A stretch of DNA of 20,000 nt from Reclinomonas americana ATCC 50394 (taxonomy: Eukaryota), in contig PS015039.1 of the NCBI GenBank assembly GCA_048213135.1, positions 230,799 to 250,798 on the forward strand. Reading direction: 5' to 3'. Shown one piece after another: positions 1 to 19,500 of the stretch. The translations under genes were made by a program, and so were the position numbers. Numbering within the stretch: the stretch's first letter is position 1; each line of letters opens with the position of its first letter. The notes beneath the pieces were generated by a model that worked only from the letters and a program-made list of their open reading frames with translations, ran no database searches and was not told the DNA's origin.

Positions 1-1330
1 CAGCGCCTCCCGTCGCTCCGCCTATCACCCACGACCGCAGTCGTCACCGGGCTATCGAGCGGGCGACGTGCTTGCTGCTCGGCCGCGCAGTGCCAACGCC
101 AGTGTGCAGCGCACGAGCACTTCTATCGATCCGTCCTCGTCGGCAAACTCGACCCCTCTTGCCAGTGTCATTGGCGGTTCAAGTGAGGCTGGCGACCTGG
201 TGGACGTGGACGACGTGGAGGGGAGTGACGGAGCGGAGGATTCGTTGGATATTGCGGAGAGGGCCTACCGCAAGGCACGGCCACTGTCTCCACAACAGCA
301 AAAGTCTGACAGGCCGCGCCCGCCGCATCTGGCCTTTGTCACCAGCTCTGTCGATTCCAGCGGCAGCGGCAGTGGTGGTGGTGTTGGTGGTCTTCGCTCC
401 CGCTCCACCGCCATCTCTACTACTGGCCGGCCTGCTACTCCCATCGGTGCGCCGCCGCCGCCACCACCACCGCCCATCCAATCGCCAGAGTCTCCGCACC
501 GACCGCCCGGTGCGCCATCCTCGGCTCGTTCCCCACGTTCTCGTGCTCCGCGCGTCAATCACCATTTGCGAGTGGTACGCTGTAGTCCGTTTGTGTGAGC
601 ACCTTGTGTGTGCGACACTTGTTTACCGATGTGCATGCAGAGTGCGTTTGAAAAGGCGGAAGACGACGACGCCAGCAGCCGGACGAGTGGGAGCAGCAGC
701 GGCGGCGGTGCACCGCCCGTGTGGAAGGCGCTGAAAGAAGTGGTGGCTTCAGCTGACCTCGAACCCGTCTCGCCCATATCGTACACGCTGCGCAAGTGCG
801 TGAAAGCCACTCACGGTTGTCTGGTGTGGCGCACATCTCACGTCATGTTTTTCCTCTTGTGTGAACACAGATCAATGCATCCTTCCGAGTTGATCCTGGA
901 GACAGCGCGTCGTCTTGATGTTGCGCACACCAGCAGTGCATCGTGTCTTTCCCACACCATGTGAGCACTCAATTCGTATTCTTTGTGTATGCAGGTGGGA
1001 GTGTTGACCACGAACACAGCCAATCCTCAACTGTTCAGTCGTCGCCCAGCACGCCCGCCGGATCCAAATTCACCGTCCGAGCGCGAAAAGCGAACGCAGT
1101 CACTCATGCGTGTGGATGTTGGCATGCCGAAGAAGCCGAGCGTCGCCGACGTGATGCGCAGCGTTTCCGCCACCGCGGCCGGCAACACGTTTTTCGGTGG
1201 CGCTGCCTCCGATCGACATGCGGCTCGCCAACCCCGCCGCCCACAGACCGCTGGCTCTCGCCGACCGCCGCCAGCGCCGTCATCGAGGACACTGCCTCTG
1301 CGTCCTAGTTCAGCGCACTTGCGGTACTGA
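1..1330 (+). CDS. 3' part of a spliced gene encoding a Ser/Pro/Arg-rich, largely disordered protein of unknown function (5' end outside window)
   Basis: Phase-consistent exons: <2-574, 641-795, 871-919, 995-1330 (stop TGA). Donors GTACGC, GTGCGT, GTTGCG; CAG acceptors. Contains poly-Pro and Gly/Ser runs; no recognisable domain. Confidence 0.7.
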
Positions 1331-1421
1331 TTCTAGCCAGCGTGGGGACGCAAGCCCTACATAATTGATAATAATAATTCGAACTCTACAAAAAGTTATT
1401 TCTCCGATATTTCCGTATCGC

Positions 1422-4400
1422 TTATACCCTGCGCGCGATTATTGATTGACACACAAGTTAGTGCAGATCACCATAATACTCATGGTGACGGCGATGGCGA
1501 CTGCAACTCACCGCAGAAGGGAGAATGGCCGTCCCTCAGCACCGGCACTAGCTCCAGTTGGTCCCATGACCGCACCGTGCTGTACCAGCAGACGGGTCTG
1601 TCGTGGCAGCAGGCCCTTGACTCCCGCCAGACTCACTCCAACAAGATTAAGTGATCGCAAATCCACCAGCGGCTGTCGGCATCACAGCAAGTCAGGACAC
1701 ATACACACAAAGACGACTCGCACTCCACGCACCGCAGCAGCAGCAACACCGTCACCCTGCGCCGCCAGCGATATCGCTGTCAGCCAGTGGAACGTCAGCT
1801 TGTCGCCCATTATCTGGAAGTGCAGCACATCGACGTGTTCGCCGTCTGGTGTGAAACGATACAGCGCCTTTTCCTTGTCGCTCGTCGGTCTGACAACGAG
1901 GCGGATGGTGTCAAGAGAGCGCACATCCCGAATGCGACCTCCGCGTCGCGTCTCGTACCACGTGCCCTGCAGCACCCCCCTGCAGTCAGCGAGATGTCCC
2001 GAATACAGAATGCCACTACCCACAACGCACCACGAAGAGCGCGCCAGGCGACAAGCACAGGTTCACGATACGAGGTGCGCAGCTGAAACGATGCCAGCTG
2101 CCTCGTTCAACGCCCGATTCGACATCCCACAGTACAACACCGCCGTCGTGAGACAGAGATGCGAGCGTGTTGCCGGATGGATCGAACTCGACACTGCGTG
2201 TTGTCGCGTGAGTCGTGCGCCTCTGCGTTTGTCAATGCAGCGGCGACAACGGATTACCAGGTGATGAATGACCGCTCGTGTTTCGGGCTGCACAGGGTCT
2301 TGCTCCGCCGGTACAGCCGTTTCTCGACGTCCCATTGCCAGATGGTCACCTTGGAATCCATTCCGCCCGACGCAAGAAGCTGCACTCCGTCGGCACGGGG
2401 CTCACAGAATCGCACGCACTGCATGATAGGCAATGAGAAAACGGGAGCGAGTCGACATCACAAGACACATATGAACGCACCGTGACACCGTCGCGGTGGC
2501 CGAGCAGCGTCTGCGCCGGTGACACCAAGGTGTGTACAGTCTGCAACGCGCGAAAGTGAGATCGAATGCAATCAGAGTTCGGGCACAGATTGCTTCACCT
2601 CGCCAGCCAGTGGCAAAGTCCAGATGTCGATGCGATTGTCGCGACGAGCAGTGGCCTGTCCGCCAAGCAAACGTGAACAACGTTGTCAAAGGAAACAGAA
2701 CACGAGTACGCGCTCACCATTGTCTTTCCGTCACTCGACAGCGCCATGCTGACAGTCGAGATACTTCCACGATCAATGTAGAACAGCAGACGCCCGTCGT
2801 TGAGTGCCCACACAAAGGTCTTGCCGCCGGTGCAGCTGGCAGCGAAGAGAACTCGGTCGGATGCCGCGCCAGAGAAACAGCTGCTGATGAAGCGGTTCTC
2901 CATTGTGGAGCGACGCTCCAAAATCACGGTAGGCAACACCGCCTGACCACTGGCGGCCTCCGTGGTCCACGCGCGTGGACGTGGCGATCCGCTCATGTAG
3001 TCGACCGCCACCACGTGGCGCAGGTCGGGAGAGCAGTAGATCGCCCGTTGAGAGTCCGGACGCGGCGGTGCCACGATGCGCTCGTCACCGAGCATCCACG
3101 AGCGCACCGTCTGATCAGCAGACGCGGAGACAAGCCGCTCACGGCCATTTCGCTCGCGGGCAAAGCGAACACTGCGCACCCATCCGCTGTGTGCACTGAT
3201 ACTGCGCAGAAGGCGCCAGCTTTCCGTGTCGAACAGACACACAGTGCAGTCGTTGCCGCAGGACGCAAGATACGAGCCATCGGCAGAGAAGTTCAGATCC
3301 CACACCTGCACTTGCACGTTAGCGGCACGCCACAACGATTGAGAAGCGGGAAGAACGCACCCAGCCGGTGTGCTCTCGCAGCGTGTGCTCCACCACCCAC
3401 GTGCTGTCGTCGGAGGTACTTTGCAGCCACACACGGACGGCCTGATCACGTCCGCCCGTGGCGATCACGGAAGGCAGCTGCGAACGGACGGCGACGGCAT
3501 TGACACTGTCGGAGTGCTTCAGTGGTTTGGAGCGCGGAACCCACACTTGTTCGTCGTCTTGCTGTGAGGTCGAACCGGCGGGCAGCTGCTGCTCCCACAG
3601 GCGCACCATTCCGTCCCAGCTTGCCGACACCAGCACTTCGACGCCGTCAACTACTGCAAACGTCACATCTTGGACGGGACCGGAGTGGCCGTGCAGCACG
3701 CCGTGCGGAAGCAGCTTCAAGCGACCCGCTGCACACTTGTAGAGCCGAATCTGCGCGATCAACCAAGAAAGAATGAGCACTGGCGTGCACAAGAATAGTG
3801 AAAGACTGACAACTCTCGTCATGCCGCCGTCCACCTACCGTGTGATTGGAGAAGCCGACAGCGAGCAAGCCGAGGTGAGGAGTCGAAAATGCCAAGCTTT
3901 CGGTGCAGTACGGGCGCGACGTAGCAGTGTGAGCCAGCTGTGCGACGAATCAATGTCAGGCCGCTGCAAGTTAAGGGTCACGCTTGCCAGTTAAAGACGC
4001 AACCACACGCTCGCACAACATGGGAGCCACTTGCAGGTCACAGAGGTTGACAGCAATATCTGCAGTGGCAATGCGCATTTAAAAACCCCCGTGCAACAAC
4101 AGTCACCCAGTGCTGACCACGCAACAGCTCTCATCGGTGAACGAGAAGGAGCGGTCAAACTCGGTGCACAGTCGATTCATCACATGTTGCAGTTCGGTGT
4201 CATTCACATCGACCAAGTCCGCGTGCGTGAACAGCACCAGCAAGTCAGGCTGCGTGCATCAACATGAGTGCTGTGCGCCACACTCAAGACGATCCCACTA
4301 TGCGAACGAAACTCTCAGTCCGCGGATCGATGCCAGGTGCGGTGCGCATGTTACCAGCATGGACAACCACTGCACTTGGTCCTGCAGTGATCGTGCTGTG

Positions 4401-7400
4401 GCAAGGATGAAGATGTTGAGCAAGAACAATGCAACCCGCCTGCCAGCACAGCAGCATCAAGACGCAACAGGAGCTTAGGTCGACGGTGAGGCACACCAGC
4501 GCCACCGACTGCCCTGTGGAAGGCACTGTATCCCCGCATATGAATGTTGGTCACACGGATTGAAGAAACACACAAGAAATTGCAACGGAGAATGCACACA
4601 CACACCAAATGCGGCCGTCATGTCGGACTCGTTCTCCACGACAACAATCTCGAAGCTCGCCTCCTCCGTATCGATGCGACTCACGCCACCGCTCTCATCG
4701 ACCGACGACGACGTGTGACGACGGAGAACTCCAACCAACTCGGCTTTGCCGGATTCAGGCGGACCGAGCACCACACTGCGAAAAAAATGTGCATGAGCGA
4801 GAAGACGACAGCCACTCAGCGTGCCACACAAACACGCAACATGCGACAAGAAGTCATTGGGTGACGGGCGCGGGTGCCGGGACTTGCAGACTCGGCGGTC
4901 GAATTGCAGCAGCAACTATCGTCGACCTGGTCGACCAATTCCAGCCGGTCGTCGTCGCCTCGTTGGAACAGGCACACATCGCAGCCCTTGCCACCCGACG
5001 CCACGTATCGTCCATCCAGCGAGAATTCGACCACCGGCGGTGCATCCTTGTGTTCGTGCACCACACCGCAATCGACTCCGTCCTCGGCATACAGACGAAT
5101 CGTGCCATCGCTGCAACAGCTCACGCATTCGGATCGAATCACACCATCGCACACGCCACATAAAAATGCTTACCGACACGCCGTGACCATCAATGGTGAA
5201 GTCGGGCAGCAGGCGAGCGAATTGATGCCGACATCGTGACCCGGCTGACACGGCACCTCCGTGACCGGCAGCTGATTGAACGAGCAGCCCTCCAAATTCG
5301 CACCCTCCAGCTTCGCATTCGGCGCCCACACGCCCTCCAAATAGGCACCACGCATGTCGGCACCTCGCAAATCGACGCCCTCCAGCGACGCAAACGAAAG
5401 ATTCGCTCCACATGCCGCCACGTTGCGCATGTCACCGGCCAGTCGCGGATCGGTGGCGAATTCGAAGCCACACCAGTTGAGAAGCGAAATGGCTGAACGA
5501 TGCAAGTTGTGTGCTTTCAGCAACACAAACAGGAAGGCAGAGAGGTTGTGCACGCAGTGCGTCTCACCATTGCCTGACGCGACGCTAATCTTGGCGGCGT
5601 ATTCCTTGTTCTTGGAGAGTCGGACCAAGCGGACGAGCTGATCTTGCAGGCGTGGTGTGTGCTTCAACAGATCCGCATAGAAGACCAACAGAGCGTAGAA
5701 CTTGGTCAGCGGCAGCGTATTCAGGGCAGTCACACCCTGGGCGATCCGAATAAACTCCTCGTCGTCATCATCGGGAGCACTGCATCGCCAGCGCGTGTTA
5801 GACGCTGCTGCACCGCACAGAGGCCACCCCAATCAACGCAACTCCAACAGCACCAGCGTACTGCGCACGTAAAAGTACTGCCGGATCACGTCGTAGCTGA
5901 AGCTCCAAATCTGCGGCAGAATAATACACGTCGGTTGTGCAAGCCCCACAACAACCACGCAGTCGATCCTCACCTCTGACTGGGAGCCAATTCGGTACTC
6001 CAGCACAGTCATCTCGAGTGGGCACGAGTCCAACAGAAGCTCGGGGTCCATGACAGCGCCGTCCTTGTACAGTGGACCAAGGCGCTTGGCTGGATTGTGC
6101 GGCTGCACAAAGACAAACTCGCGCGACACAAACATCTTCAGCGCCAACCGCTGGCAATAGTCGAGCAGTTCGTCCTCGGTGGGCACTCGGTCGTCAACCC
6201 GGCTGCGCGCATCCAGTGCCCGGCGCATGCGCTCGCGAACAAACTGGTCCAACAGGCGCCACTGGAGCGGGATTCGCCCGCCCAACAACGCCGCGTGGCT
6301 CATGGTCGACTCGCACAGCTGGTCAATGACCAGGCGCAAAAACAGCGGGAAACGCATGAGGTCGCTCAGTTCCGTGGCGGCACTCAGCGCCTCGCTAATG
6401 ACATCAAACATGTCCTGGCGCGGCACGTACGCTCGCACGAAATCACGAATCTGCGAGTTGGACAGCGGAGCAAGTGCCACCACGCACAGCCGCCCGGCGT
6501 CCGGCTGACCAGTGCGCGTGGACAGCGGAGCGAACAGAGTCGGCAACTCGGGTTTCACCGGACTCAGCACGAAGCGCTGGCGACACGTGATGACCAACTT
6601 GGCATTCTTCCAATCGGCCAGCTGACAGACGAGCACGGGCGTACAAGAGTGAAAAAATGCGGTTGTGTGTGTGGAAAACAAGGACTCGGCGCAAACCTCA
6701 GGGAACTGAGTGAACACGCTCTTCTCCACCATGAGACTCTCCCAACCGTCCAGGAAGAACACCGTCGGCAAGTTGCGCAGCTCGTTGATTTCGCTGTCGG
6801 AGAAGCTGACGCACTCTGGCGCACGACGCAGCCACTCGCTCGGTCCAATCATGCGGCCGTCGACCCTAGCAAACGACAGCGTCTGGTGCACCGGAAAGAA
6901 ATTCTGCGAGCCTGCACCCCATCGTTCGGCCAGCGAACGAGTTGCCTGCACAGAGAATGTTCTGCGCGCGTGTGCACGAGAAACACATAAGTCAGCTTAA
7001 GGCCTCGCACTCGTCATCCGCTCGCCCCGTTGAGACGCAACGTTTTCCCGGAACCAACATCAGCCAAAACCACCATGACGCTCTGCACAGATTGGATGTG
7101 AGCGAATGGTTGTGGCAACAAGCGGCGGACAAGAAAGCAAGGAGACCTTGTGAGGCGACTGAAGAAAGGTCTCTAGACGGCCAAATAGGTCCTGCAGTCT
7201 GTTGCCTGCACCGGGTGCCTTTGGAGCAATGTACACGTCGGTGGCCTTGAAGCGCTGCTCCAGCAGGGTCTCTTGTGTCATCAGAAACATGTCGAGTTTG
7301 GTACGCACTGCCGCGATGACATATGAGGACAGAGAAAGAAAGCACAGCATTTTTCTCTCGATAGACAACTCACATCCAGAGCCGAGGTTGACATCCGACA

Positions 7401-10400
7401 CCGTACGCGGTAGCACACTGAACGCGTCAGTGTCGGAGCTTGAGGCACCCGCCGAAGGCAGAGTGACTGAACCGCTGCGCTGGTTGAAACTGCGCGCCAT
7501 CCCACCGCTCGCATGCATGTCGTCGTACAGCAGGCACTCGTTCCAGCGCTCTGCGCGGGGCACGATCATGTCAGCACTCGCAAACGGAATGACAAGGAGG
7601 TGAAAACAGGTCGCACACCATTGCGCTCCCGCATGGCCAGCAAGTGGTAGTCACGGTCGGAGAGGCACGGGTCACTGCTTCGTCGTGGCAGCGCCACCGG
7701 CTGCAGAAAGGTGGTGCTGGTGACCGAGCGGGCCAGCGTCGCTCGCTGCGTGTCGGCGTCTTGTTCCGCTGCGGGTGAGGACAGTAAGGCCGCTCCCGCC
7801 GCCGCCTCGTCGTCATCATCGCTGACGTCGATGAACGAATCTGTATCCAGCACGTTGCCGACAGGAACCGTGACGTAGTGGCGGTCGAAGACGTCCAGTT
7901 CGCAATCGTCGTCACCGGCGACACTCACATTGTCGGCACTCACATGTCGCACAGGTGGTGTGGTACCGAGAGACGATGGCGAGCTACTGCGCGAAGCGGC
8001 CGACTTGACCAACACAGGAGTCGGCAACAGACGCAGTGCACGGCTTGCCACGGCGTCGCTGACCAGGGGCAGAACGAAAACGGTGGAGAGCGGGATGTGT
8101 GCCGACTGCTCGGCGCTGGCGGTCAGCACTGCTGACTCGGTGACGGCGGCGGCGTCCAGCGGTCGCACAAGGAGCTCGTCCACTGCGAGCAGGTGGGTGA
8201 GAATCAAAGTGAAGCACCGCTGGAAACGCGTGAGACAGCGACTACTCAACGATGTTGCAGATGCTCGTCCAACACCACGCGGCACGCCTGAATGCGCGCC
8301 TCAAAGGCCAGCTCCTCGAATCGCTGCGAGTCCACTCGAAGGCGAAGCTCAAGAGCAACAAAGTCGGGAGTGGGCGTGGCCGATTGCAGGTCGACAAACT
8401 GCAAAAATAAAAAAAGACGAAACGTGTTAGATCGATCGATGGTTGATCGCAAGTACATCTCAGCACTACGCACCGTCGGATCAACGAATGGTGCTGAGTG
8501 CTCCCGGATTCTGTGCAGCACATGGCACAACAAGGCCGCCACTGCGTAATTGAGATGCACGTACGCCTCGAAGAGGAGCTCCTCCACCAACTGCGGCGGG
8601 AAAGTAATAGAGAGCGGGTGAGAAAGCAAGAAGGGAAGATGGGGATACAAGGAGACGCAACTGCAGCAGCCTGCTCGTCGTCACTCAGCAGCGGCAGTGT
8701 GCATTGCAACACTGTGCCGACCACAGCAATGTCGCAGCGGGCGGCAGCCAATAACAGGGCATGCTGTCCGACGCGATTGCGCTGCACGAGAAGCATTTCT
8801 GCGGCCAGAGTCGGCGGAAGGGCGGCCACAAGAGCCACTGCATTGTGCGAGGTGAGGAAGGAATAAAAAATGGACGGGTAAGAAAAAGAAAAGAGAGAGA
8901 GGAGTGCGACGCACCAAGACCGGCCATCGCTGCAGACTTGCGCTCACTGCTCGCGTCTGTGCGCGAATCGTCCGACCCGCTGTCGTCGGCGGGCGACGAA
9001 ACCTAACAATCAACAAGCAAACCGTGAACAACAACTCGGATGGAGCTCACATGCCACAGAAACCAACGCACCGTAGAGGAGAGGTTGCCCTGCGAGCCCA
9101 CGGCGAGCAGCATGGGAAGATTGAGCAGCTCGCTGGTCATCAAGGTGGCCAGCTGTGCCGGAGGCACGACCGTCAGCTGGAGAATGGCCACGAAAACTTG
9201 CGGATGGGCAAGAGCGGCGAGTGCCAGCGGTGAAAATCCCACACCAACGGCGATTTCGTCGACCAAAGCCGCGCAGCTGGTGGGACGCAGTCAAAAAAAC
9301 GGACAGCGACCGGCCGGTGAGAAGAAGCGGGGAAAATGTGCGCAACAGTTCGGCGGGAGTGACGGTCGAGGCAATGCGGCGCAGCTGAGCAAAGTCGTCG
9401 TTGAGAATGGCCTGTTCCGTCGGCGAGGGGGTCGATGAGTGCACTGCCGATACAATGATGCAATCGAAAAAAAGGCAACGCACCTTGAAGAGAAGCATGC
9501 ACAGAGCTGCATGTGCGCCGCCGGTTCCGTTCGGTGTCTGCGGTGCTGGCGAAGCAGCCGAGACGAAGCCACCGGATCCACTGGCCGAGTGACCGGAGGA
9601 CATGGACGAGGCGCCGGGTGAGCCGTCGGTGGGCATGGAGCGGTTGGACGGGCGCCGGACGGCCACTGCGGGATCAGAAGAAGGGTAAGGAGAAGGGGAG
9701 GAGGGAGGAGAAGGGGGAAGGGGAAGGAGAAGGGAGAAGGAGAAGGGGAAGGAGAGGGAAAGGAGAAGGGGAAGAAAAAGGTGAAGGAAAAAGGGGAAGG
9801 AAAAGGGGGAAGGGGAGGAGAAGGCGGGGGGAGAAGGGGAGGAGAAGGCGGGAGGAGAAGGCGGGAGGAGAAGGGGAAGGAGTAGGGGAAGCAGAAGGGG
9901 GAAGGAACAGAAGTAAGGAGGGAAGGAACAGGGGGAAAGAAAAGGGGGAAGGGAAAGGGGGAAGGAGAAGGGGGAAGGAGACGGAAGAGGGGAGCAGTGA
10001 AGCGAAAATAAACCAAGAAAGAGAGAGAGAGCGAGAGAGTAAAAACGCAACTCTTGCCAGATAGCTGCTGGGCAGGGAGGCGTCTCTCCACCACCAGCGT
10101 CACCCACTGCTCCGACACCTCCACGTGCCCATCTGTGTGCAGCGTCGCAAAGTACACGTGCGTGCGTCCCTCTTTCTGCGCTCCCAGCACCTGTCGTGAG
10201 ATACAGCGCACCGGGGAGCATGAAAGGCACCCACAAAACGCACCTGAGCCAGCACCTGCACCTTGGTCTGCACATCATCGGTCGATGCACCGAGAGGGCG
10301 TACCGTCAACTCGTCCTGATCAAGTGTCGGTCAACAGGCAGTGCGTTGCGAAAAAAGAAGGCAGGCAGCGACTCGCAGCGACGCAACAAGGCGAACAAGA

Positions 10401-12786
10401 GCCGAAGAGTCGGTGCTTGCCAAACCGCGCGCAATCACCGGCGACATGGCAGAGACGAGCGGCGGGTGGCGGAAGGTGACCGACGAGGTCTCACCGACGG
10501 GCAAATCCTTGCGATGGACCTTGAAAAAGTAGTCCGCTGCACGACGGGCATGTAAGACAGGGTGAAGAAGAAAGATACGTGTGCTAGCACACGACTCTTA
10601 CCTCGGCGGACGAGGGCGGCACGGTGGATGGCCGGCACACGCGGGTTCTCGTTGGGCGAAAACAGCCACCACATCTACCGGAGAGTGCGCAAGTCCATAT
10701 TATTCGGCATGCAGAGTCGAGAAACACAGAAACGATGATGCCTACCTTGTGCATGATGGGCTTGTGGTTGGCCTCGGAGTGCGGATTGGAGAGGTGCACG
10801 TCGAGGGCGCCGTCGAGTGAGACCGGCAACTGGCCACCAATCTGTGCACACCACATTAGGCAATCAATTGAGGGAAAAAAGTCTCGCACTCTACGCGACC
10901 ACCTGCGTACCTGCACTTGCACGCGCAGCTTTTCGAGCTCAGAGTGCTTTGGGTTGCCCTTGGTCTGCTTGACCACAAATGCCACATTGCCGTCGGCCTC
11001 GAAACTAGCAATCTGGACATTGAAGAACGGGGAAGCAACGCCCTCCAAGGAAATGAGGATGTCGCTGGGAGTTAGCGTCTGCGACGGTTGCCCGACGACA
11101 TCGTATGGCTCTCGGATCACGGCCAACGTGAACTTGGTGGTTGACTCGGCACGAGCAGGACCCTGCACGTGACGCGCACACGTGACAAGGTGCAATATTA
11201 TGCGCGCTGCGCACTCGGGCCTACGCACCAAGAACTTGACCCAGGCGTATGCTCCCACTGGCTCCTCCTCCTCGCGCGATTTGAGTGCCACAAAGGTGGG
11301 GGTGGAGAATCGCATGACTGCCGGAAAAAGCAAGTGAGTGAGCGAGCGGGCAAGTGAGTGATTGTGTTGGCCAAAAAAAAACAACGCACGGTATCGACAC
11401 TGATGCTGCAGCGCATCAAACACCAACGTATCCAACAACGGCAACGGTTCCACGCGCTGCCACAGCGCCTCGCCATCCCAGCACGACAGGTTCGGTTCGG
11501 GGCAAAACTGCGCACTCGACGCCACCACATGCTGCGTGATATGCAGCGGCAAATCGCTATCCCCACCCATCATCATCATCATTGCCGCCGCACCACCACC
11601 ACCACCAGCACTGCCCGACGCAGCACCCACAGTCCCGCCACCGCCCATGAACGACAAGGACGCCGCCGGCAACATTGGCAACAACATCGGCAGTGTGCCT
11701 CCGCCAACTCCCACACCACCAATGCCAACACCACCTGCGCCCACATGTACAGAAATGAGCAGACAGAGAGTGCGCATCATAGACCGCGCAGCGCACCCAG
11801 CGGTCCTGTAGACACCAGCGACGACACTGCCGAGCCCACCGACGGCACCGTACTCGTCCACGCCGAGCTCGCCCCGCCAAAGCTCGACCCGGCCTGCGCA
11901 AACCGCCCACCAACAACACCGCCACTCGCACCAGGCGCAGTCAACCGCCGACTTGCAGAGGCGATGAGGATGAGCACATACACAGGCGAGCGCGAGGTGG
12001 ATTTGTGTTGCTCACCTCGACGACGACGAGGAAGACGACGATCCCGACGAGGACGACAGCGATGACGGCGGAGGCAGTCCCGCAAATGCATGCTGCTGTT
12101 GCTGCTGTTGGTGTTGGTGTTGCAACAGCTAAAACGCAAGGGCGAGAAGGCATTGAGGAAGAGAAGAGAGGGAAGAGCAAGGTGGAAGACAAGGAGGAGA
12201 AGCAGGCAAGGGAAGAAGACAAGGGGGAAGTGCAAGGAGAGGAGATTGAGGAGAAGAAGAGCAGACAAGGAGGAGAAGCAGGCAAGGAGGAAGAAAGAGC
12301 AAGAGCAGGCAAAGGAGAACGAGCAGACAAGGAGAAAGCGCAAGGGAGAAGACAAGGAGGAGAAGCAGATAAGGGAAGAAGACAATACGGAAGAGCAAGG
12401 GGAGAGATTGAGGAGAAGAAGTGCAAGGGAGGTAGAAGACAAGGAGGAGAAGCAGACAAGGGAAGAAGACAATGAAGAAGAGAAGAGAGAAGACAATAGA
12501 ACAAGAGGAGAAGAGCAAGGAGAAAGAGCAAGGGAGAGGCAATGAGTGCGCCCTGAGACCAACTCACCAATGGTTTATGCTCCACGACTGCTGCAGCAGC
12601 TGCGGCTGCGGCTGCTGCACCAGTGGCGGTGGTGGCCCAGTCGTAGAGTCCCATGGAGTCGGCCACAGGCACACCTCCTCCTCCGCCTCGTGCAGCAGCC
12701 GAGGGCGCAGAGGAGGATGGAGGAGGCAGAGGCGGAGGCGGAGGCAACTGGTGGTTGTGGAAGTGGTGTGTGCGAGAGGCGGCCAT
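1422..12786 (-). CDS. Giant multi-exon NLR-like STAND protein: low-complexity N-terminus, beta-rich region, ankyrin-like repeats, NACHT, pentapeptide repeats, WD40, Roc-like pseudo-GTPase, WD40 array, conserved C-terminal tail
   Basis: ATG at 12786 (MAASRTHH...). Manual splicing gives a continuous frame through more than 30 mostly 55-90 nt GT-AG introns plus two long pyrimidine-rich introns, with no forced stop. Ends at TGA 1508-1510 or, via a last intron with a CTAAC branch point, at TAA 1422-1424 (..FSLLRV*). Some individual junctions are uncertain. Confidence 0.7.
1511..1672 (-). other. C-terminal tail exon of the NACHT-pentapeptide-WD40 protein (absent from the ORF track)
   Basis: Translates PLVDLRSLNLVGVSLAGVKGLLPRQTRLLVQHGAVMGP. 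This resembles the 'I.GV.GLS..N..LL.QRGA' end motif I recall for NACHT-pentapeptide-WD40 proteins, and is preceded by 'LTFHW'. Confidence 0.7.
1735..3937 (-). other. WD40 repeat array (about 9-11 blades) of the giant gene
   Basis: GH..WD-type units: LHGHSGPVQDVTF..LVSASWDGMVRLWE; KHSDSVNAVAV..ATGGRDQAVRVW; EHTGWVWDLNFSADGSYLASCGNDCTVCLFD; AHSGWVRSVRF..VSASADQTVRSW; LLGHRDGVTCVRF..LASGGMDSKVTIWQ; CVEFDPSGNTLASLSHDGGVVLWD. Confidence 0.92.
4004..4850 (-). other. Degenerate Roc/Ras-like GTPase domain inserted in the WD40 region
   Basis: Spliced sequence: RIVVLGPPESGKAELV (G1-like) ..FEIVVVENES (no DxxG) ..VALVCLTVDLSSSRSLQDQVQWLSMLVTCAP..PDLLVLFTHADL (Roc-type G4 THxD) ..YIAVNL. Order and spacing match a small-GTPase fold. 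Confidence 0.65.
4900..5235 (-). other. First two WD40 repeats, immediately after the pentapeptide repeats
   Basis: GHDVGINSLACCPTSPLMVTACR/DGTIRLY and HEHKDAPPVVEFSLDGRYVASGGKGCDVCLF, with a GTAAGC..CAG intron inside the first repeat. Confidence 0.85.
5268..5492 (-). other. Pentapeptide repeat segment (A[D/N]Lxx)
   Basis: ASGN/AISLLNWCGFEF..GANLSFASLEGVDLRGADMRGAYLEGVWAPNAKLEGANLEGCSFNQLP. Confidence 0.92.
5870..7308 (-). other. NACHT-type STAND NTPase domain of the giant gene
   Basis: Pre-domain YIAPKA..DLFGRLETFL. Walker A VVLADVGSGKT is carried by the 41-nt exon 7042-7082 plus the first base of the next exon. Walker B VFFLDGWES; sensor-1 KLVITCR; LAPLSNSQIRDFV; MRFPLFLRLV (GxP-equivalent); LLDQFV; winged-helix WSFSYDVIRQYF. 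Confidence 0.88.
8662..9510 (-). other. Degenerate ankyrin-like helical repeats
   Basis: LLFK/AILNDDFAQLRRI; VGFSPLALAALAHPQVFVAIL; RNRVGQHALLLAAARCDIAVVGTVL. These fit the G-TPLHLAA--G---VV--LL pattern loosely. Confidence 0.5.
9670..10051 (-). repeat. Long pyrimidine-rich (C/T on coding strand) low-complexity intron
   Basis: Almost pure G/A on the + strand; bounded by a GTTGCGT donor (10051) and a CCCGCAG acceptor, both phase 1. Confidence 0.85.
12150..12540. repeat. Degenerate purine-rich minisatellite in intron 1 of the giant gene
   Basis: Recurrent gaagacaaggaggagaagcag(a/g)caagggaagaagacaa near 12185, 12348 and 12436; ggagattgaggagaagaag occurs twice. Confidence 0.8.
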
Positions 12787-13570: not shown

Positions 13571-16500
13571 TTACGACCGGGGTGGATATTGTTTCCCGTT
13601 CACCGTCCACCGCGTAGGCGTCTGCTTCTCGGCCTCGACTTGCACCTGCGCCAGCAGCTGCGCGTTGCGGTAGACAGCATGCACGTCGGCGTTGGATTTC
13701 TGCACGGCGAATGCTGCAATGACACCGGCTGCGGTGCCGCTGGACCACTCCACCGGGTGCACGCGCGTGGCCGAGTTGACAATGAAACTCTGGCATGGTA
13801 GAGTGTAAGCACTAGCTGATATTCAGCGTTGCACACTGTACAGCGGAGCGCGCAAGCACCTGTGCCATGGTCTTGCCGGCGGCGACCAAGTTGGTGAACT
13901 TGGCGTTGGTGAAGGCGCGGTAGGGCAAGTAGAAGGGCAGGATGGGCCAGTCCTGGAAGACGGGCTTGGGCCACGAACAGCCGAGCACCGGGTGAATGTC
14001 GACATCGTAGCAGCCGATCGCCATGCGGTCGTCGTAAATGTGTGCCACCAGCAGGTCGGGGGTGGGGAGGCCCGAGATCTCCGTCACTTGCATCTGGAAT
14101 TGGTCCAGGCCCACCGAGCGGCGTGTGTCGCGCATGTATGGGTACTGTGCAAAGGGAGAAGGGTAAGGGAAGGGGAGGGGAAGGGGAAGGGGAAGGAGGG
14201 GAAGGGGAAAGGGAAGGGGAGGGGAAGGGGAAAGGGAATGGGAAGAGGAAGGGTGGGGGAAAGGGTGGGGGAAAGGCGGTGAGAGAAAGCAAGAGGGGAA
14301 GATGAGTGGAGAACGGTGGTGAAGAGGAAATGCAAACGGAAAGGGAAGAGAAGGAGAGGAGGGTGGTGGGGGAACGGAAAGGAGAAGGGGGAGGGAAGGG
14401 TGGGGTGAAGGGGAAGGGTAAACAGGAAGGGAAGAGTGGGGCGTTGAGGGAAGGGGAGGAGGACGGTGAGGGAGTGGAAATGGACAGGGAAGAGCGGCGT
14501 GGGGAAGTGAGGGCACGGTGGGAATGGGGAGAGAAGGATCGGTGGGCTGCCGCGAAGACATGAGGTCGATCGACGAGCATACTGGCAAGCTGAGAGGAGA
14601 AAGCAACTGCATGAACAGAAGAGTGCAGCAAGGAGAAGTGATGAGCGTGCTGCCATGCCACGGGCTTGTGCACGTGGCAATGCAACGGAGAAGAGACGAA
14701 GACAGAGTGCGGAGGTGAGCGCGAGACAGAAAGGGCGGAGAGCGAGAAAGAAAGGAGATGACACAACCTTCAGAAAGAGACAGCGTTGCATGAACCGAGA
14801 ACCGAGGACCAAAAGAAAAGAATAGAATGAAGAGACGAGAGGCAGTGACCAACCTTGGCAAGTCCATGACAGGTGCCCACAACGGAGCGAGCGAGTGTGA
14901 CACGGCCGCCGCTCTCCTTCGGGTCGGTGGTGGCGTTCTTGTACCAGAAGTGCCAGCCCATGGCGAGTTCCTCGCCGATGCGAATGGCATCGAGGCTGAC
15001 ACCACCCGTCCACGTACCGTTGCGAACACGCTGTTGCGCGTCAGCCATGCTCTCGAGCGTGTACGCAAACACATTGTCGTTGCCTTTTGACCAGTTCTGC
15101 AGCGTAATGTCGCCCAGTCGCACCGAGCCGTCGTTGGGTGCCGTGGTCTGCAGACGGCGGTACGTCCACACACGATCCCACGCGTACGTGGCCAGCGAGT
15201 AGCGCGACTCGAACTGGGGTGGCGGCGGGCCGAATGGGTTGTCGGGCTCCGGAACGGGTACTTCGTGGAGCTCCTGGTGGAGGGCGAAGGAGAGGGGGGA
15301 GGGGAGGGGGAGAAAAGGGGAGGGCGCGATGTCATTCACTCACAGTTTCCCACCATCCCACATTCCTTCCATCCTCTGCTCCATTCCACTCTATCAGCTC
15401 CAGTCTGCTCCACTCTGTACTGCTCCACATCATTCTGCTCCGCTCCACTCTGCTCCACACCATTCTGCTCCACTCTGCTCCACACCATTCTGCTCCACAC
15501 CATTCTGCTCCACACCATTCTGCTCAATACGCTCCACCTCCTGCACTCCGATATGCTCAACGCCACTACACTCCACGTTACTCCACTCCAGTCCACTCCA
15601 CTTTCCTCCGTTTCTCTCTCTCTCTCACCCTCCCTCCTTTACCCACTTACCTCGGCGAAATCAAACGTCGACGACTGCCCACACACATCCGACGTGCCAC
15701 CCACATCAATTATGCCCTGCGTGTACGGCGCCTCGCTCAACGCCAGCAACTCGCCCCACTCGGTGGCCTCCACAAACACCGCAGCCGTAAACTGCAGCAC
15801 GCGCTTGCTGAAATGCACCGAGTCCACCGGCGAGTACCAGTCGGGCAGCTGCTGGTACATGAACTGGCACGTGGTCGTGTCGAGGCTGGTGCGCTGCACG
15901 GCACGCAGCGAGGTGATGGCAGTGCCGGCGGCATTGGTGGTCACGCCCACCGGCACCGTGTTGTAGTAGATGCGGAGGGTGCTGCCGAGGGCCGCCACCG
16001 CCGGTTGCACGCATTCGGAGAGGAAGCGGAGGGGGAGGAAGCTGATGGAGAGGGGAAGGCATGAGGAGGAGGAGGAGGAGGAGGAGGAGAAGGTGGCGGA
16101 GGAGGAGGAGGAGGAGGAGGAGGAGGAGGAGGAGGAGAAGAAGAAGAAGAAGAAGAAGAAGAAGNNNNNNNNNNNNNNNNNNNNNNNNNNNNNNNNNNNN
16201 NNNNNNNNNNNNNNNNNNNNNNNNNNNNNNGGACGAGCACGTGGAAGGGGTGGAGAAGATGGGAGGAGAGAAAACAGAGGTGGAGAATGAGAAAGATGCG
16301 TGGAGATAGGTGGGAAAGAGAGTGCGGCTGAAGCAAGAACGAGCCGAGAAGTTTGCGATATTGCAGAGAAGGTGAAAGGCGTGGAAATGATAAGAGTGAC
16401 GGTGGGCTGCGTCAGGAAGTTGAAGCAAGATAGAGAGACTGGAAGAATTGATAATGAGCGGGGTCTCCCTTTCTCCGTTGCTCGTTTCTTTGTTATTCTG

Positions 16501-19500
16501 CATCTCCTTGTTCCTCTCTTCCACTCCCTTCCCTCTCCCGCCTCACCTTGACAATGTCCCTCTGATGATGTTCGATCTCCCACGCCACCTTGTGCTTCGC
16601 AAAGGCCTCGTACAGACGCGACCGCGTCACGCGGCACAGACTGGCGTCCAATCGCCGCAGCTCCTCCATCACCAGCACAATCATATTGAGCATGATGGGC
16701 TGCGCATAGTGAGCGCAGCATCGTCAACGAGATGCATGCACGAGCAGACGCACCGATGCCGCCAGGTCGATGAGGCCAGGAATGTGGTCAATCTGCTCGC
16801 GATACTGCGTCCATGGACCGCTGCCGCGGCTACCGGCCGACTTTGACTCGACGAATCTGCGGGGGAGGGGATGAGAGTTGGAAATCGCCGCTGCACTACT
16901 GTGATGCCGGGCGACGGAACTTTTGCAAGAACAAATCAATGTCCTCGAGCGCAAACAGGCGCAGCATGCATCGTGCAAGTGTGCGTTCCGGCTGCATACC
17001 CAATTCCTGTCGCGCCGCGCGTGGATTCACGGGAACAAAGCACTGCTCGGCCCAAAAGTTGCCGATGCGACTAATGTACTCGCGTCGCACGGATACGACG
17101 AGCAGCACGTTGTGCCACGCCTGAATGGGGAGCTGAGTGAGTGACGTACAGAAGGAGGTATGACGGATGGGGAACGGAACATCGAGGCCGTGCGTCACGT
17201 AGAGATTGTCGATGGCGTCGCCGCATTCGTCGTAGCCGTCGAGAACGAGGACCACGGTGCCGATGGAGCGGAGCTGTGGAGACGGGGGTGGGGAAAGAGA
17301 ATGGAGTGGAAGTAATAGAGCACGAGTCGCACCTCATCCTCTGTGAGGTGCAGCGCTTCATCCGTCACCGTCATGTTGCTCTCCTGCAACAGATACGGCA
17401 TCAACTTGTCGGCGGTGCGCAGCACACGCTCGGGGATGCCAGGCAGCCGCGCCGACAGCACCAGGGTGTCCGGTCGCTGCGTGAGGCGTGCGGTAAACTG
17501 TCGCAGCAGCACCGATTTGCCACCTCCGGACCAGCCGGCGACCACCAGGACCTGCGTGCGACAGAGATGGGTGAGCGGAGTGAGAGGGGAAGGGAGGAGA
17601 GGAAAAGACCTTGTCGGTGGGGTTTGTTCGACTGGCAAAGTTGTCGAGGAGGGTGTCGGCGGGCACGGCCACGAGGCGGCCGTTGGTGGAGTCGGCTTCG
17701 GTCTCGGTGCGGTTGGCCCAGAGGGGGACCTGGGAGGGGGAATGGGGAAAGGGGGAAGTGAGGGGAGGCAAAGGAGGAGGGGAAGAATGACAAGCGGAAA
17801 GGAACGAGGGCTGCTGACACATGTCGAGAAAATGCAAGAGGAACAAGTGAAGGAGCTGCATGAGAAGGCGGTGGAGAGCAAGGAGAAGAAGAAGGAGAAT
17901 GAGAGGGAGAAGAATGAGAGGGAGAAGGAGGAGAAGAAAGAAAGAAGAAGGGGATGAAGGAGGTAGAAGTGATGGTAAAGACGGGGGAAGAAGGAGTGGT
18001 GGCAGCAGGTGGAGGATAAAGCAGGGATTGGAGGGGGTGGAGGAAGAAGGAGAAGGTGGAAGAAGAAGAACAACAACAAGGAGAAGGAAGAGAAGATGAA
18101 TAAGGCGAAGGTGGAAGAAGATGAAGGAGGTGGAGAAGCGGAGAGACGAGAGAACACAATCGAGGCTGCATGATGAAGAAGAAGAAGAAGAACAACAAGG
18201 AGGAGGGAGAAGATGGAGAAGGAGAAGGTGGAAGAAGATGAAGGAGGTGGAGAAGCGATTGGATCATGGAGACGAGAAGAGACAATCGAGGCTGCATGAA
18301 GAAGAAGAGGAAGAACAACAACAAGGAGGTGGGAGAAGATGAAGAAGGAGAAGGTGGAAGAAAATGAAGGAGGTGGAGAAGCAATGGGACCACGGAGAAG
18401 AAGAAGAACAACAACAAGGAGGAGGAGGAGGAGGAGGGGAATGAGGAGGAGGAGGAGGGGAATGAGGAGGAGGAGGAGGGAGGAGGAGGAGGGGGAGGAG
18501 GAGGAGGAAGAAGAAGAAGAAGAGAGAGAAGAAGAAGAAGAGAGAGAAGAAGAAGAAGAAGAAGAAGAAGAAGAAGACGAGAAGGTGAAGAGCGACAAGA
18601 CACTGACGGGGAAGAGTGAGGAGAAGGGGAAGGCATGAGGAGAGGAAGACCAGAGATGAGAAGAAGTAGTGGAAGAAGAAGACGAAGGAGGAGGAGGAGG
18701 AGGAGAGACTGACCAGTTCGTGGAGACCCAGCAATGACCCGTGTCGCCGAGCTTCTGCAGGCATTGGAGAAAGTTGGGCGTGACATTGGCCGGATCGTGC
18801 GCCACATCGCTGACGTGATACGTAAAGTTGCCATTGACAAGCGTGTGCCTGCATGCCAACACAGAATGCACCTCAATGACTCCCACTCTCTCGGATCAAT
18901 CACAGTTGGGGAATGTACCATGCAAAGTCCACTGCTGGCACTGCACTCGCTGTCAGCTGACCGCCGACCCAGTCAGTGGGCTCAAGCTGGAAGGCAGAGA
19001 ATGACAATGAGTGAGTGAAAGAGTGTGTGAAAGAGTGCGAGAGTGAGCGGAAGAGTACGAGAGTGAGTGAAAGAGTGAGGGAGTGAGTGAATGAGTGAGG
19101 GAGTGTGTGAAAGAGTGTGAAAGAGTGAGGGTGGGTGAGTGAATGAGTGTGTGAAAGAGTGAGGGAGTGTGTGCGAGTGTGTGAAAGAGTGTATGAGTGT
19201 GCGAGTGAGTGCAGTGAGCGAGCAGAAGGACGTGAGGCTGCGCGAGTGATCATGATGAGATGCACAGTGTGAGACAACATCTTCACAATGCAGACTCCCT
19301 CTTTCCCCCTCTCTCTCCCCCTCTCCCCGCCTGCTCTCACCAGACACGTGCTCACACCACGCGAGGCCGAGGCGAGCGCCGCAGCGAGCGCCGATGTCGA
19401 CCTGATATCGAATCATCATCATGACTCCGCCACAAAAACCAACATGCATCACACAGACACACTCACTCACCCGCCAGCAATCACCACATCGCATTCCTCA

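Follow-up and report, generated by a model that had tools for sequence, protein, structure and literature searches.

The 20,000-nucleotide stretch of Reclinomonas americana DNA analysed here (the window) carries a minus-strand locus which, at a probability of about 70%, is an intact, intron-rich gene encoding a very divergent NACHT-clade STAND NTPase. The NTPase would be followed by pentapeptide repeats and by WD40 repeats, and the protein appears to have acquired two lineage-specific additions, an N-terminal domain without detectable relatives and a P-loop segment in the propeller. Animals, fungi and bacteria commonly build their innate immune receptors on the STAND/NACHT chassis. To our knowledge the STAND/NACHT repertoire of free-living protists is poorly charted, and this locus would place a very divergent NACHT-pentapeptide-WD40 protein in a eukaryote not represented in the protein databases searched. 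Coordinates are positions in the window and all features of the gene lie on its minus strand.

The NTPase and repeat core

The part of the gene from 7307 to 1682 was curated as 16 exons and 15 GT-AG introns that join in frame at hand-checked junctions, and its product is a 1492-aa frame with a stop at its end alone, the TGA at 1684-1682. The NACHT, pentapeptide and WD40 parts read as one gene, as the introns that separate them (55-147 nt) could not accommodate a boundary between genes. The order of NACHT, then pentapeptide, then WD40 in one reading frame, which an earlier reading of the DNA (the original prediction) had proposed, thus stands. GC3 was 0.64-0.80 in every curated exon except the 13-codon P-loop exon (0.54), and A3 was 0.06-0.17 in every one except exon 4439-4313 (0.29).

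The Walker A motif, GSGKTT, is formed over the junction between a mini-exon at 7082-7042, which was read directly from the DNA, and the exon beginning at 6961, and it aligns with the P-loop of the NACHT profile. Among the donor and acceptor pairs read, only donor 7041 with acceptor 6962 preserves both Walker A and the coding frame, and the introns flanking the mini-exon are 64 and 80 nt. Profile and database matches assign the exon at 6961-5843 to the body of a NACHT-like NTPase and the helical/winged-helix region after it. In the hmmsearch alignment the Walker B motif is a variant form (FFLDGWES aligned to LLlDGLDE) in which the second acidic position is the Glu after the Trp, and the T/S-x-R motif is present (LVITCRQ aligned to vvvTsRp). 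The NACHT profile was built from 10 sequences, nine Myxococcota loci that pass Pfam NACHT and P0001, the best representative match, which carries Pfam NACHT at 38.4 bits. The spliced NTPase scored 27.8 bits on this profile, where 2000 shuffles reached 7.8 bits at most, and 33.6 bits after P0004 and P0005 (described below) were added; as a cross-control, a Roc profile gave -1.2 bits on the same segment.

The NTPase is distant from everything with which it was compared. A search of about 1.84 billion representatives returned only five matches at E 0.001 and none at 1e-10. With E allowed up to 0.1, Pfam matched no family, NACHT (PF05729) included, to the unspliced 387-aa ORF, from which the P-loop exon is missing, and PADLOC gave no match. 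NCBIfam EruA matched the NTPase at E 5.4e-4, its 18.2 bits lying far under the cut-off of 1000. When the NACHT ORF was used as query, the best phmmer match in the PDB was an unrelated PadR protein (E 0.8), and a word-index search of longer proteins found no homologues. The ESM Atlas placed the NACHT exon with bacterial NACHT-type clusters at 0.90-0.95, including NACHT-associated C-terminal families. No homologous locus was found when P0004 was searched in genome contigs. The single metagenome-contig match to the NACHT exon lies on a phage-like contig and was rejected as an unrelated chance word.

The exon at 5779-5174 encodes a helical linker and the pentapeptide repeats, and the first WD-like blade begins in it. 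PF00805 matched the pentapeptide repeats in two stretches (E 6e-13, 48.5 bits, cut-off 20.2). Blades 1-2 and a Cys/Ser-rich linker follow in the exon at 5110-4841 (log-odds 0.148 per codon), where PF00400 stayed below its cut-off of 27 bits with 22.5 bits (E 1.6e-4; E 0.03 when the exon was scanned by itself). Blades 3 to about 14, assigned with PF00400, occupy 3937-1682 in exons 3937-3839, 3750-3361, 3305-2673, 2540-2481, 2418-2258, 2193-2031 and 1966-1682. PF00400 reached 47.6 and 46.7 bits on two ORFs and matched below the cut-off on four further exons or ORFs. By eye, the spliced product shows about 14 WD40-like blades, sufficient for two propellers; blades 1-3, 8, 10, 13 and 14 are weak, and the chosen splices rebuild canonical WD repeats over the junctions. 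Pfam scans of the locus found no leucine-rich repeat family, which places the predicted protein outside the strict animal and plant NLRs (NACHT or NB-ARC with LRR).

Relatives and possible role

Two of the five NTPase matches have the same order of P-loop NTPase, helical region, pentapeptide repeats and WD40. P0004 (1259 aa) comes from a JGI metagenome, where it is named 'WD40 repeat protein', and P0005 (1641 aa) comes from ENA. In the whole-library search their NTPase bodies matched at E 5.7e-4 and 8.2e-4; they are about 27-30% identical to the NTPase of this gene. The pentapeptide block is collinear with its counterparts in P0004 (E 6e-8) and in P0005 (E 0.003), which themselves pass Pfam with 40.5 and 46.9 bits, and the phmmer alignment to P0004 runs collinearly from the P-loop through the nucleotide-binding (NOD) module and the pentapeptide block into WD40. 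The two proteins differ from this one in having short N-terminal parts and a single P-loop each, so that they lack the GTPase-like insertion, and P0005 has C-terminal Ank repeats. The strongly matching WD40 begins about 16 residues past the pentapeptide block in P0004 but about 300 residues past it here. The original prediction had not recognised this combination of domains. Its core order, as judged from these alignments, is already in databases, and the predicted protein is an unusual form of a known kind of receptor, not a kind of its own.

Bacterial NACHT (bNACHT) antiphage proteins have LRR, TPR, HEAT, beta-propeller or pentapeptide repeats as sensors and mostly N-terminal effectors, and they likewise place a NACHT module before superstructure-forming repeats, according to the parts of the bNACHT report available to us (Kibby et al., bioRxiv 10.1101/2022.07.19.500537). 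Those parts describe no protein that joins pentapeptide repeats, tandem propellers and an inserted P-loop. The bNACHT proteins are bacterial, whereas the gene here is eukaryotic, intron-rich and without a PADLOC match.

Among established proteins, Apaf-1 and the fungal HET-E-type and animal NWD1/TEP1-type proteins have a STAND NTPase followed by WD40 propellers. This gene has the same layout, for which repeat-mediated autoinhibition and ligand-triggered oligomerisation would be expected, but, in contrast to those proteins, Pfam found no CARD, HET or TROVE domain at its N-terminus, nor any other recognised one. We know of no pentapeptide block before the propeller, and of no insertion in the propeller, in those families. 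From Apaf-1, NLRs and bacterial NACHT proteins it can be supposed that the pentapeptide and WD40 module would hold the NTPase closed in an ADP-bound state. As in established STAND proteins, binding of a ligand to the repeats might then lead to nucleotide exchange and oligomerisation, and oligomerisation would gather the N-terminal parts for signalling. Less securely, these N-terminal parts may be the orphan domain (11610-10734), the helical region and the acidic linker of the same transcript.

By analogy with such proteins, an immune or non-self-sensing role is plausible. TEP1 and NWD1 are NACHT-WD40 proteins with housekeeping scaffold-type roles, and it is possible, though we lean against it, that this protein is a scaffold of that kind and not a receptor. 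In the N-terminal part no known effector domain came up, which fits a scaffold. Extreme divergence and a lineage-specific insertion suit a fast-evolving conflict gene more than a conserved scaffold, and the nearest look-alikes by language model are the bacterial NACHT clusters; neither point is decisive.

The P-loop segment among the WD40 blades

Between blades 2 and 3 lies an insertion of about 173 aa, encoded by exons 4775-4587, 4439-4313, 4249-4126 and 4059-4007 and delimited by its junctions. It contains GPPESGKA and, about 103 residues further on, LVLFTHAD, whose T-H-x-D at the G4 position we take to be a Roc-type variant. The original prediction had named this an integrated Roc-like domain. 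A P-loop-bearing segment is indeed present among the blades, but the Roc label is weak. On a profile of 22 Planctomycetota Roc loci the insertion scored 7.3 bits, below usual thresholds, and 5.4 of the 7.3 bits came from the P-loop stretch; G1 ends in GKA, not GK[ST]; DxxG is absent after the second strand, where the sequence reads V-E-N-E-S; and there is no sequence left for a COR domain, as the segment ends near residue 899 of the curated product and the next WD-like blade has begun by about residue 907.

ROCO proteins such as LRRK2 combine a Roc GTPase with COR, as the parts of two reports available to us describe (PMC11378527, PMC7159879). The likeness to them consists of a small P-loop segment with T-H-x-D at G4 within a large, repeat-rich, WD40-bearing protein. 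With no COR, a Walker A ending in GKA, no DxxG and a Roc score of only 7.3 bits, the predicted protein is not a member of the ROCO family.

We favour, as a reading with less support than the core, a degenerate Ras/Roc-like P-loop fold for 4775-4007. The loss of the Walker A Ser/Thr and of DxxG makes an active GTPase less likely, and such a segment is more likely to be a partner-binding or a structural or regulatory insert. It is also quite conceivable, though less likely than not, that the segment is not GTPase-like at all, being either a lineage-specific insertion with a chance P-loop-like string or partly intronic, with a shorter linker in the protein. Pfam gave no family on the single exons, a PDB search with the GTPase-like exon found only TrmE (E 0.74) and UreG (E 1.5), and global hhalign against Roc returned a probability of 4.3%, which together with the low Roc score, the Ala at the end of Walker A, the missing DxxG and the single P-loop of P0004 and P0005 speak for such an origin. 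However, none of 2000 shuffles reached the Roc score (the best gave 4.9 bits), the hhalign alignment is collinear over 142 columns (P 0.003) with the T-H-A-D string at the NKxD position, and the Roc profile fits the insertion better than the NACHT profile does (7.3 against 3.8 bits). The coding evidence is similarly divided. Leave-out coding scores of the four exons, in the order given above, were 0.134, -0.064, 0.236 and 0.002 per codon. The composition of exon 4439-4313 is poor (-0.064, with A3 at 0.29), and an alternative in-frame splice skips it. Two exons are strongly coding (0.134 and 0.236, A3 6-7%), which argues that at least those two are translated.

If the insertion is GTPase-derived, it would be a rare example outside plants of a domain integrated into a STAND sensor; if not, the locus would be a useful yet ordinary example of STAND architectural shuffling. 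We think it very improbable that the gene encodes an NLR-like receptor with a catalytically dead small-GTPase decoy in its WD40 sensor, a NACHT relay and an N-terminal effector of unseen fold. Were this so, the decoy would serve, like the integrated domains of plant NLRs, as bait for factors with which pathogens or viruses attack Ras/Rab/Roc-type GTPases of the host.

Gene model, N-terminal part and splice sites

Upstream of the curated core the minus-strand frame could be extended, running from 11610 to 1682 as 28 exons and 27 introns with 2412 codons and no internal stop. The exons of 11610-7307 are tentative additions to the curated model, and the exon borders between 10734 and 8399 are likewise tentative. 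In each exon proposed for 11610-7147 only one frame is both free of stops and positive in codon log-odds, and the exons from 8837 onward are linked by introns of 66-144 nt. We infer a single transcript over 11610-1682. In the original prediction exons from 12786 to about 1422 joined in frame with canonical sites. This holds for 11610-1682, where the junctions are GT-AG and the frame is stop-free, and fails for 12786-12015, which has no coding signature, and for the end, here 1682. A terminal mini-exon at 1428-1396, near 1422, appeared only in over-splitting parses and was rejected.

An ATG is present at 12786, as had been claimed, but the 5' exons with the polyQ/Gly/Ser stretch, which share 12786-11781 with a CT-rich tract, have no coding signal. 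The supposed first exon (12786-12580) scored -0.089 log-odds per codon in the ATG frame with an A3 of 0.20, and the polyQ piece (12130-12015) had negative log-odds in all three frames, so this 5' kilobase is probably non-coding. The sliding coding profile over the interval was weak or ambiguous. It is probably 5' UTR, intron or intergenic sequence, and a polyQ/Gly/Ser region in the effector position is not supported.

Coding log-odds place the first large coding exon at 11780-10734, in a stop-free frame at 0.076 per codon with candidate in-frame ATG starts at 11780, 11777, 11687, 11675, 11648 and 11582. A Gly/Met-rich low-complexity stretch opens it and leads into an orphan globular domain of some 280 aa. 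This domain had no match in Pfam, PDB, PADLOC or NCBIfam and no homologue in a word-index search of proteins of near lengths. Its AlphaFold model, made without an alignment, had a pLDDT of 33.8, too poor for a fold search, and the best ESM Atlas match to 11582-10734 was 0.77, with GOLD_2 on 16% of members, under the lead threshold. The beta-sandwich suggested for this region was not confirmed, the GOLD match being the sole lead. Pfam, PADLOC and NCBIfam turned up no death, TIR, nuclease or other recognised effector domain in the N-terminal part.

The dynamic-programming parse gave three small tentative exons next (10674-10593, 10536-10388 and 10190-10052), each with one stop-free frame and positive log-odds of 0.10-0.17. 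They are followed by a CT-rich proposed intron of 386 nt (10051-9666), placed from its donor and acceptor positions relative to the coding signal. An all-helical region comes after it, in tentative exons 9665-9573, 9443-9347, 9276-9068, 8837-8662, 8590-8543 and 8398-8251, whose coding signal is positive in one frame each and whose junctions were enumerated. Ankyrin-like repeats had been read here; Pfam matched no family, ankyrin (PF00023/PF12796) or other, at E up to 1 or 10, in the ORFs containing those exons (8245-8943, 9013-9600, 8249-8680 and 9006-9290), and the claim is not supported. A 69-aa exon of this region was modelled by AlphaFold without an alignment as five helices at a pLDDT of 56.7, too poor for a fold search. 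An acidic/Ser-rich linker exon (8182-7619, 0.157 per codon) and two pre-NACHT exons (7550-7374 and 7307-7147, 0.079 and 0.174 per codon) complete the extension. The introns before and between these three exons are 68, 68 and 66 nt with GCAG acceptors, which ties the linker and pre-NACHT exons to the NACHT exons. The Pfam scan matched neither these exons nor the tentative ones at 10674-10052.

It is rather unlikely that the locus holds two same-strand genes, an upstream orphan-domain gene at about 11780-10052 and a downstream helical-NACHT-pentapeptide-WD40 gene from about 9640. If it does, the boundary is possibly in the CT-rich 386-nt tract, the most likely place for one. The widest gap in coding signal runs from 10052 to 9443 and includes this tract, which is ambiguous in all frames. 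Exon 9665-9573 is nearly without coding signal (0.017 per codon), Met codons lie in its frame just past the acceptor (near 9640), and the uncertain borders between 10734 and 8399 leave room for a break. On the other side, the upstream coding frame closes at a consensus GTTGCG donor without a stop, the unspliced upstream frame stays open across the low-complexity tract as far as 9294, and a GCAG acceptor at 9666, where the coding signal resumes, gives a compatible phase. CT-rich introns of 0.4-2.7 kb are established by homology in a neighbouring FAD-oxidoreductase gene, and the only distance between tandem genes that was measured here, from 13580 to about 11780, far exceeds the tract.

A decaying pseudogene, or chance open frames stitched together in GC-rich DNA, is hardly credible: such ORFs are plentiful (the window contains 160 that reach 80 aa or more) and several short exons have near-zero coding scores, but Pfam-significant repeats are spread over several separate exons, canonical WD units are regained only with the chosen splices, the third-position bias (GC3/A3) holds in nearly all curated exons, and 2412 codons run without an internal stop.

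The splice-site weight matrices were trained on the introns of this analysis, and the usage of GCAG and GTTGCG is therefore partly circular. With these matrices weighted strongly the dynamic program over-split the gene, recovering just 9 of the 16 curated exons and missing the P-loop exon; it served as a guide, and the hand-checked junctions were used for 7307-1682. The gene documents an unusual splice-site style, GTTGCG...GCAG with short introns of 55-90 nt, which gene finders trained elsewhere would miss. In the neighbouring FAD-oxidoreductase gene the homology-defined introns include the same short class (about 47-70 nt) beside the long CT-rich ones. The best homologue of that gene is from Willaertia magna (46% identity), and the GC content of the protist DNA is about 59%.

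NACHT NTPase, pentapeptide and WD40 core

The minus strand carries a real and intact gene at this locus. In the curated model (7307-1682), 16 exons separated by 15 introns (55-147 nt) encode a 1492-aa product in which the sole stop is terminal; the model establishes the order of the domains and shows that they are continuous between the NACHT NTPase and the WD40 repeats. Exons were parsed with a purpose-written dynamic-programming parser, after which every open-frame GT...AG pair was enumerated for each frame change; junctions within 7307-1682 were picked by protein logic. The parser missed the P-loop exon; once the splice matrices had been trained on the parser's own results, it split the gene too finely and recovered no more than 9 of the 16 curated exons. 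A 41-nt minus-strand mini-exon (7082-7042) flanked by GT-AG introns of 64 and 80 nt carries the Walker A motif; among the pairs read from the DNA at 7150-6950, the combination of donor 7041 and acceptor 6962 is the only one to preserve both G-S-G-K-T-T and the long coding frame. Removal of the 62-nt intron 2480-2419 and of the 64-nt intron 2257-2194 each recreates a canonical WD repeat.

The pentapeptide and WD40 repeats of the original prediction both exceed their Pfam cut-offs in unspliced minus-strand ORFs: pentapeptide repeats (PF00805) in ORF 5173-5832 (E 6e-13, 48.5 bits, cut-off 20.2) and WD40 in ORFs 3322-3834 and 2598-3464 (47.6 and 46.7 bits, cut-off 27). ORF 4819-5169 has a WD40 match below threshold (22.5 bits), and later scans added WD-type matches at 2019-2231 and 2257-2457. 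No Pfam family matched the unspliced NACHT-candidate ORF (5836-6996) or ORF 7063-7650.

When the 387-aa NTPase ORF was compared with about 1.84 billion cluster representatives, only five proteins matched at E ≤0.001 and none at 1e-10. P0001 is a Pfam NACHT protein (38.4 bits), P0003 is a fragment (225 aa) to which Pfam assigns no family, and P0004 (1259 aa, JGI metagenome) and P0005 (1641 aa, ENA) are P-loop proteins rich in WD40 repeats; P0002, a repetitive protein, was regarded as noise. A NACHT profile was built from P0001 and nine of the 10 NACHT loci that turned up in 6 of the 151 Myxococcota genomes, each with a script-found P-loop (L068, which had none, was left out). The spliced NTPase domain scored 27.8 bits against this profile, compared with 7.8 for the top of 2000 shuffles, and the alignment covers Walker A, Walker B (FFLDGWES on LLlDGLDE) and the T-x-R motif; enlarging the profile with P0004 and P0005 raised the score to 33.6 bits. 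The NACHT exon adjoins bacterial NACHT-type clusters in the ESM Atlas (0.90-0.95) and has a weak NCBIfam match to EruA; PADLOC and PDB searches with the NACHT ORF gave no match. Judging by these motifs and scores, we conclude that the domain is a very divergent NACHT-clade STAND NTPase, which bears out the predicted NACHT-type NTPase.

Comparison with known proteins and the P-loop insert

P0004 and P0005 share the order NTPase–helical–pentapeptide–WD40 with the product of this gene. P0004 and the spliced product align collinearly along their P-loop, NOD, pentapeptide and WD40 segments, and the pentapeptide blocks of P0004 (E 6e-8) and P0005 (E 0.003) pass Pfam and align at the matching position; unlike the product, neither protein has a second P-loop. 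The accessible text of Kibby et al. includes beta-propeller and pentapeptide repeats among bacterial NACHT sensor modules and argues that eukaryotic NACHTs arose repeatedly from such bacterial forms (10.1101/2022.07.19.500537). A full-text literature search found no eukaryotic NACHT–pentapeptide–WD40 protein, and supplementary tables, which lie outside such a search, may contain these architectures. The domain combination had been put forward as unrecognised: its NTPase–pentapeptide–WD40 core is present in P0004 and P0005, and neither of them has its second P-loop. The core is a divergent representative of a NACHT–pentapeptide–WD40 architecture that already exists but has been little described. 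Novelty lies in the lineage-specific parts, namely the N-terminal orphan domain, the helical region and the P-loop insertion within the propeller, and these are also the least well supported.

This insert of about 173 aa, encoded by four minus-strand exons (4775-4587, 4439-4313, 4249-4126 and 4059-4007), separates WD-like blades 2 and 3. In it, a strand leads into the P-loop string GPPESGKA, and LVLFTHAD stands about 103 residues further on. By leave-out codon scores, two exons are clear coding sequence (0.134 and 0.236 per codon), another is neutral (0.002) and the remaining one is poor (-0.064 per codon, A3 0.29). No Pfam family matched the single exons or the Roc-candidate ORF 4478-4915, and PDB GTPases reached E 0.74-1.5 at best against single exons. 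On a Roc profile of 22 loci from 16 of 201 Planctomycetota genomes the spliced insert scored 7.3 bits, and none of 2000 shuffles exceeded 4.9; the P-loop stretch contributes 5.4 of the 7.3 bits. Globally aligned to Roc with hhalign, the insert was collinear across 142 columns (P 0.003, probability 4.3%), and the NACHT profile gave 3.8 bits. Ala occupies the Walker A Ser/Thr position and no DxxG was found in the insert; the next WD-like blade begins about 10 residues after it, so the COR domain is absent. The product is not a member of the ROCO family. In the bacterial conflict systems described in the accessible text of Kaur et al., Roc is strictly coupled to COR (PMC7159879). A P-loop segment does lie among the blades, as in the Roc-like domain originally claimed; the Roc-like label itself is weak. 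A degenerate small-GTPase-like insert is probable but unproven.

By analogy with Apaf-1, NLRs and bacterial NACHT proteins, the repeat module would keep the NTPase closed. As in STAND proteins, a ligand bound at the surface of the pentapeptide block or of the propeller would allow nucleotide exchange and oligomerisation, which would cluster the N-terminal region and produce a signal; the degenerate P-loop insert might, speculatively, be a regulatory or bait surface and not an enzyme. An immune role would likewise be assigned by analogy.

Upstream exons and the gene boundary

Sliding codon profiles and per-exon scores place every proposed exon in 11610-7147 in one stop-free frame with a positive score, and introns of 66-144 nt connect the exons that lie between 8837 and the NACHT. 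A single giant gene had been proposed; its 28 exons from 11610 to 1682 do join in frame into 2412 codons with one stop, the weakest link being a 386-nt CT-rich intron (10051-9666). That the locus holds two genes split at this stretch is rather unlikely, as a consensus donor where the coding signal ends and a phase-compatible GCAG acceptor favour its splicing. The single gene would be shorter than first drawn: the 5' exon 12786-12580 and polyQ piece 12130-12015 lack coding signal, and translation more likely begins at an ATG within 11780-11582.

The N-terminal domain (11582-10734) had no match in Pfam, NCBIfam, PADLOC or PDB and no homologue was found; the upstream 475-aa ORF (10587-12011) matched no Pfam family. 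The sole lead is a GOLD match of 0.77 in the ESM Atlas, and the AlphaFold model has a pLDDT of 33.8. The domain is an orphan. Pfam scans of the ORFs in the supposed ankyrin-like region found no Ank match, and AlphaFold predicts five helices for its 69-aa exon (pLDDT 56.7).

Intron style and the neighbouring oxidoreductase gene

GC content of the window is 52-62% and it holds 160 ORFs of at least 80 aa; such GC-rich DNA yields many chance ORFs, so open frames are by themselves weak evidence. In the full model 20 of 27 introns measure 55-90 nt, GCAG acceptors number 23 of 27 (background, 114 of 552 AG sites) and of 12 GTTGCG occurrences in the region 8 are used as donors (8 of 27 donors), counts that are partly circular because author and parser favoured those signals. 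An independent comparison comes from the multi-exon FAD-dependent oxidoreductase gene (PF12831) upstream on the minus strand (13580-18986), whose exons were set by tblastn with three database homologues (18986-18918, ~18848-18722, 16061-15651, 15213-14821, 14141-13842 and 13792-13580). Its homology-defined introns comprise short ones of 70 nt (GTACAT...GCAG) and ~47 nt (GTGTGC...CCAG) and long CT-rich ones of ~0.44, 0.68 and 2.66 kb; this genome thus has short introns with C-A-G acceptors plus long CT-rich introns, and the splice features of the gene model recur there.

Across both minus-strand genes (1682-11610 and 13580-18986) the splice style is unusual, with donors mostly GT[TG][GC]CG, few GTRAGT and acceptors almost always GCAG, and short (55-90 nt) and long CT-rich introns coexist. 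CT-rich low-complexity tracts (12100-12560, 9680-10050, 14142-14820 and 17700-18700) leave the minus strand open in two to three frames and look like Ser/Leu/Pro-rich coding sequence; wherever checkable they are intronic. An assembly gap of 66 N (16165-16230) lies in a low-complexity tract of the oxidoreductase gene's long intron. Plus-strand open frames 2-598 and 3-734, which lie 3' of the gene's stop (window 1-1400) and run past the window start, had no Pfam match.

Among the oxidoreductase homologues, a hypothetical protein from Willaertia magna, a heterolobosean, ranks first (46% identity over one exon) and Planctomycetota proteins come next, a pattern that could reflect gene transfer. Within the 2.66-kb intron (18721-16062) lies a minus-strand P-loop ORF (17198-17701) with weak matches to AAA_22, Viral_helicase1, AAA_16 and nSTAND_NTPase5 (E 1e-4 to 3e-3), which may be a nested gene or the remnant of a mobile element.
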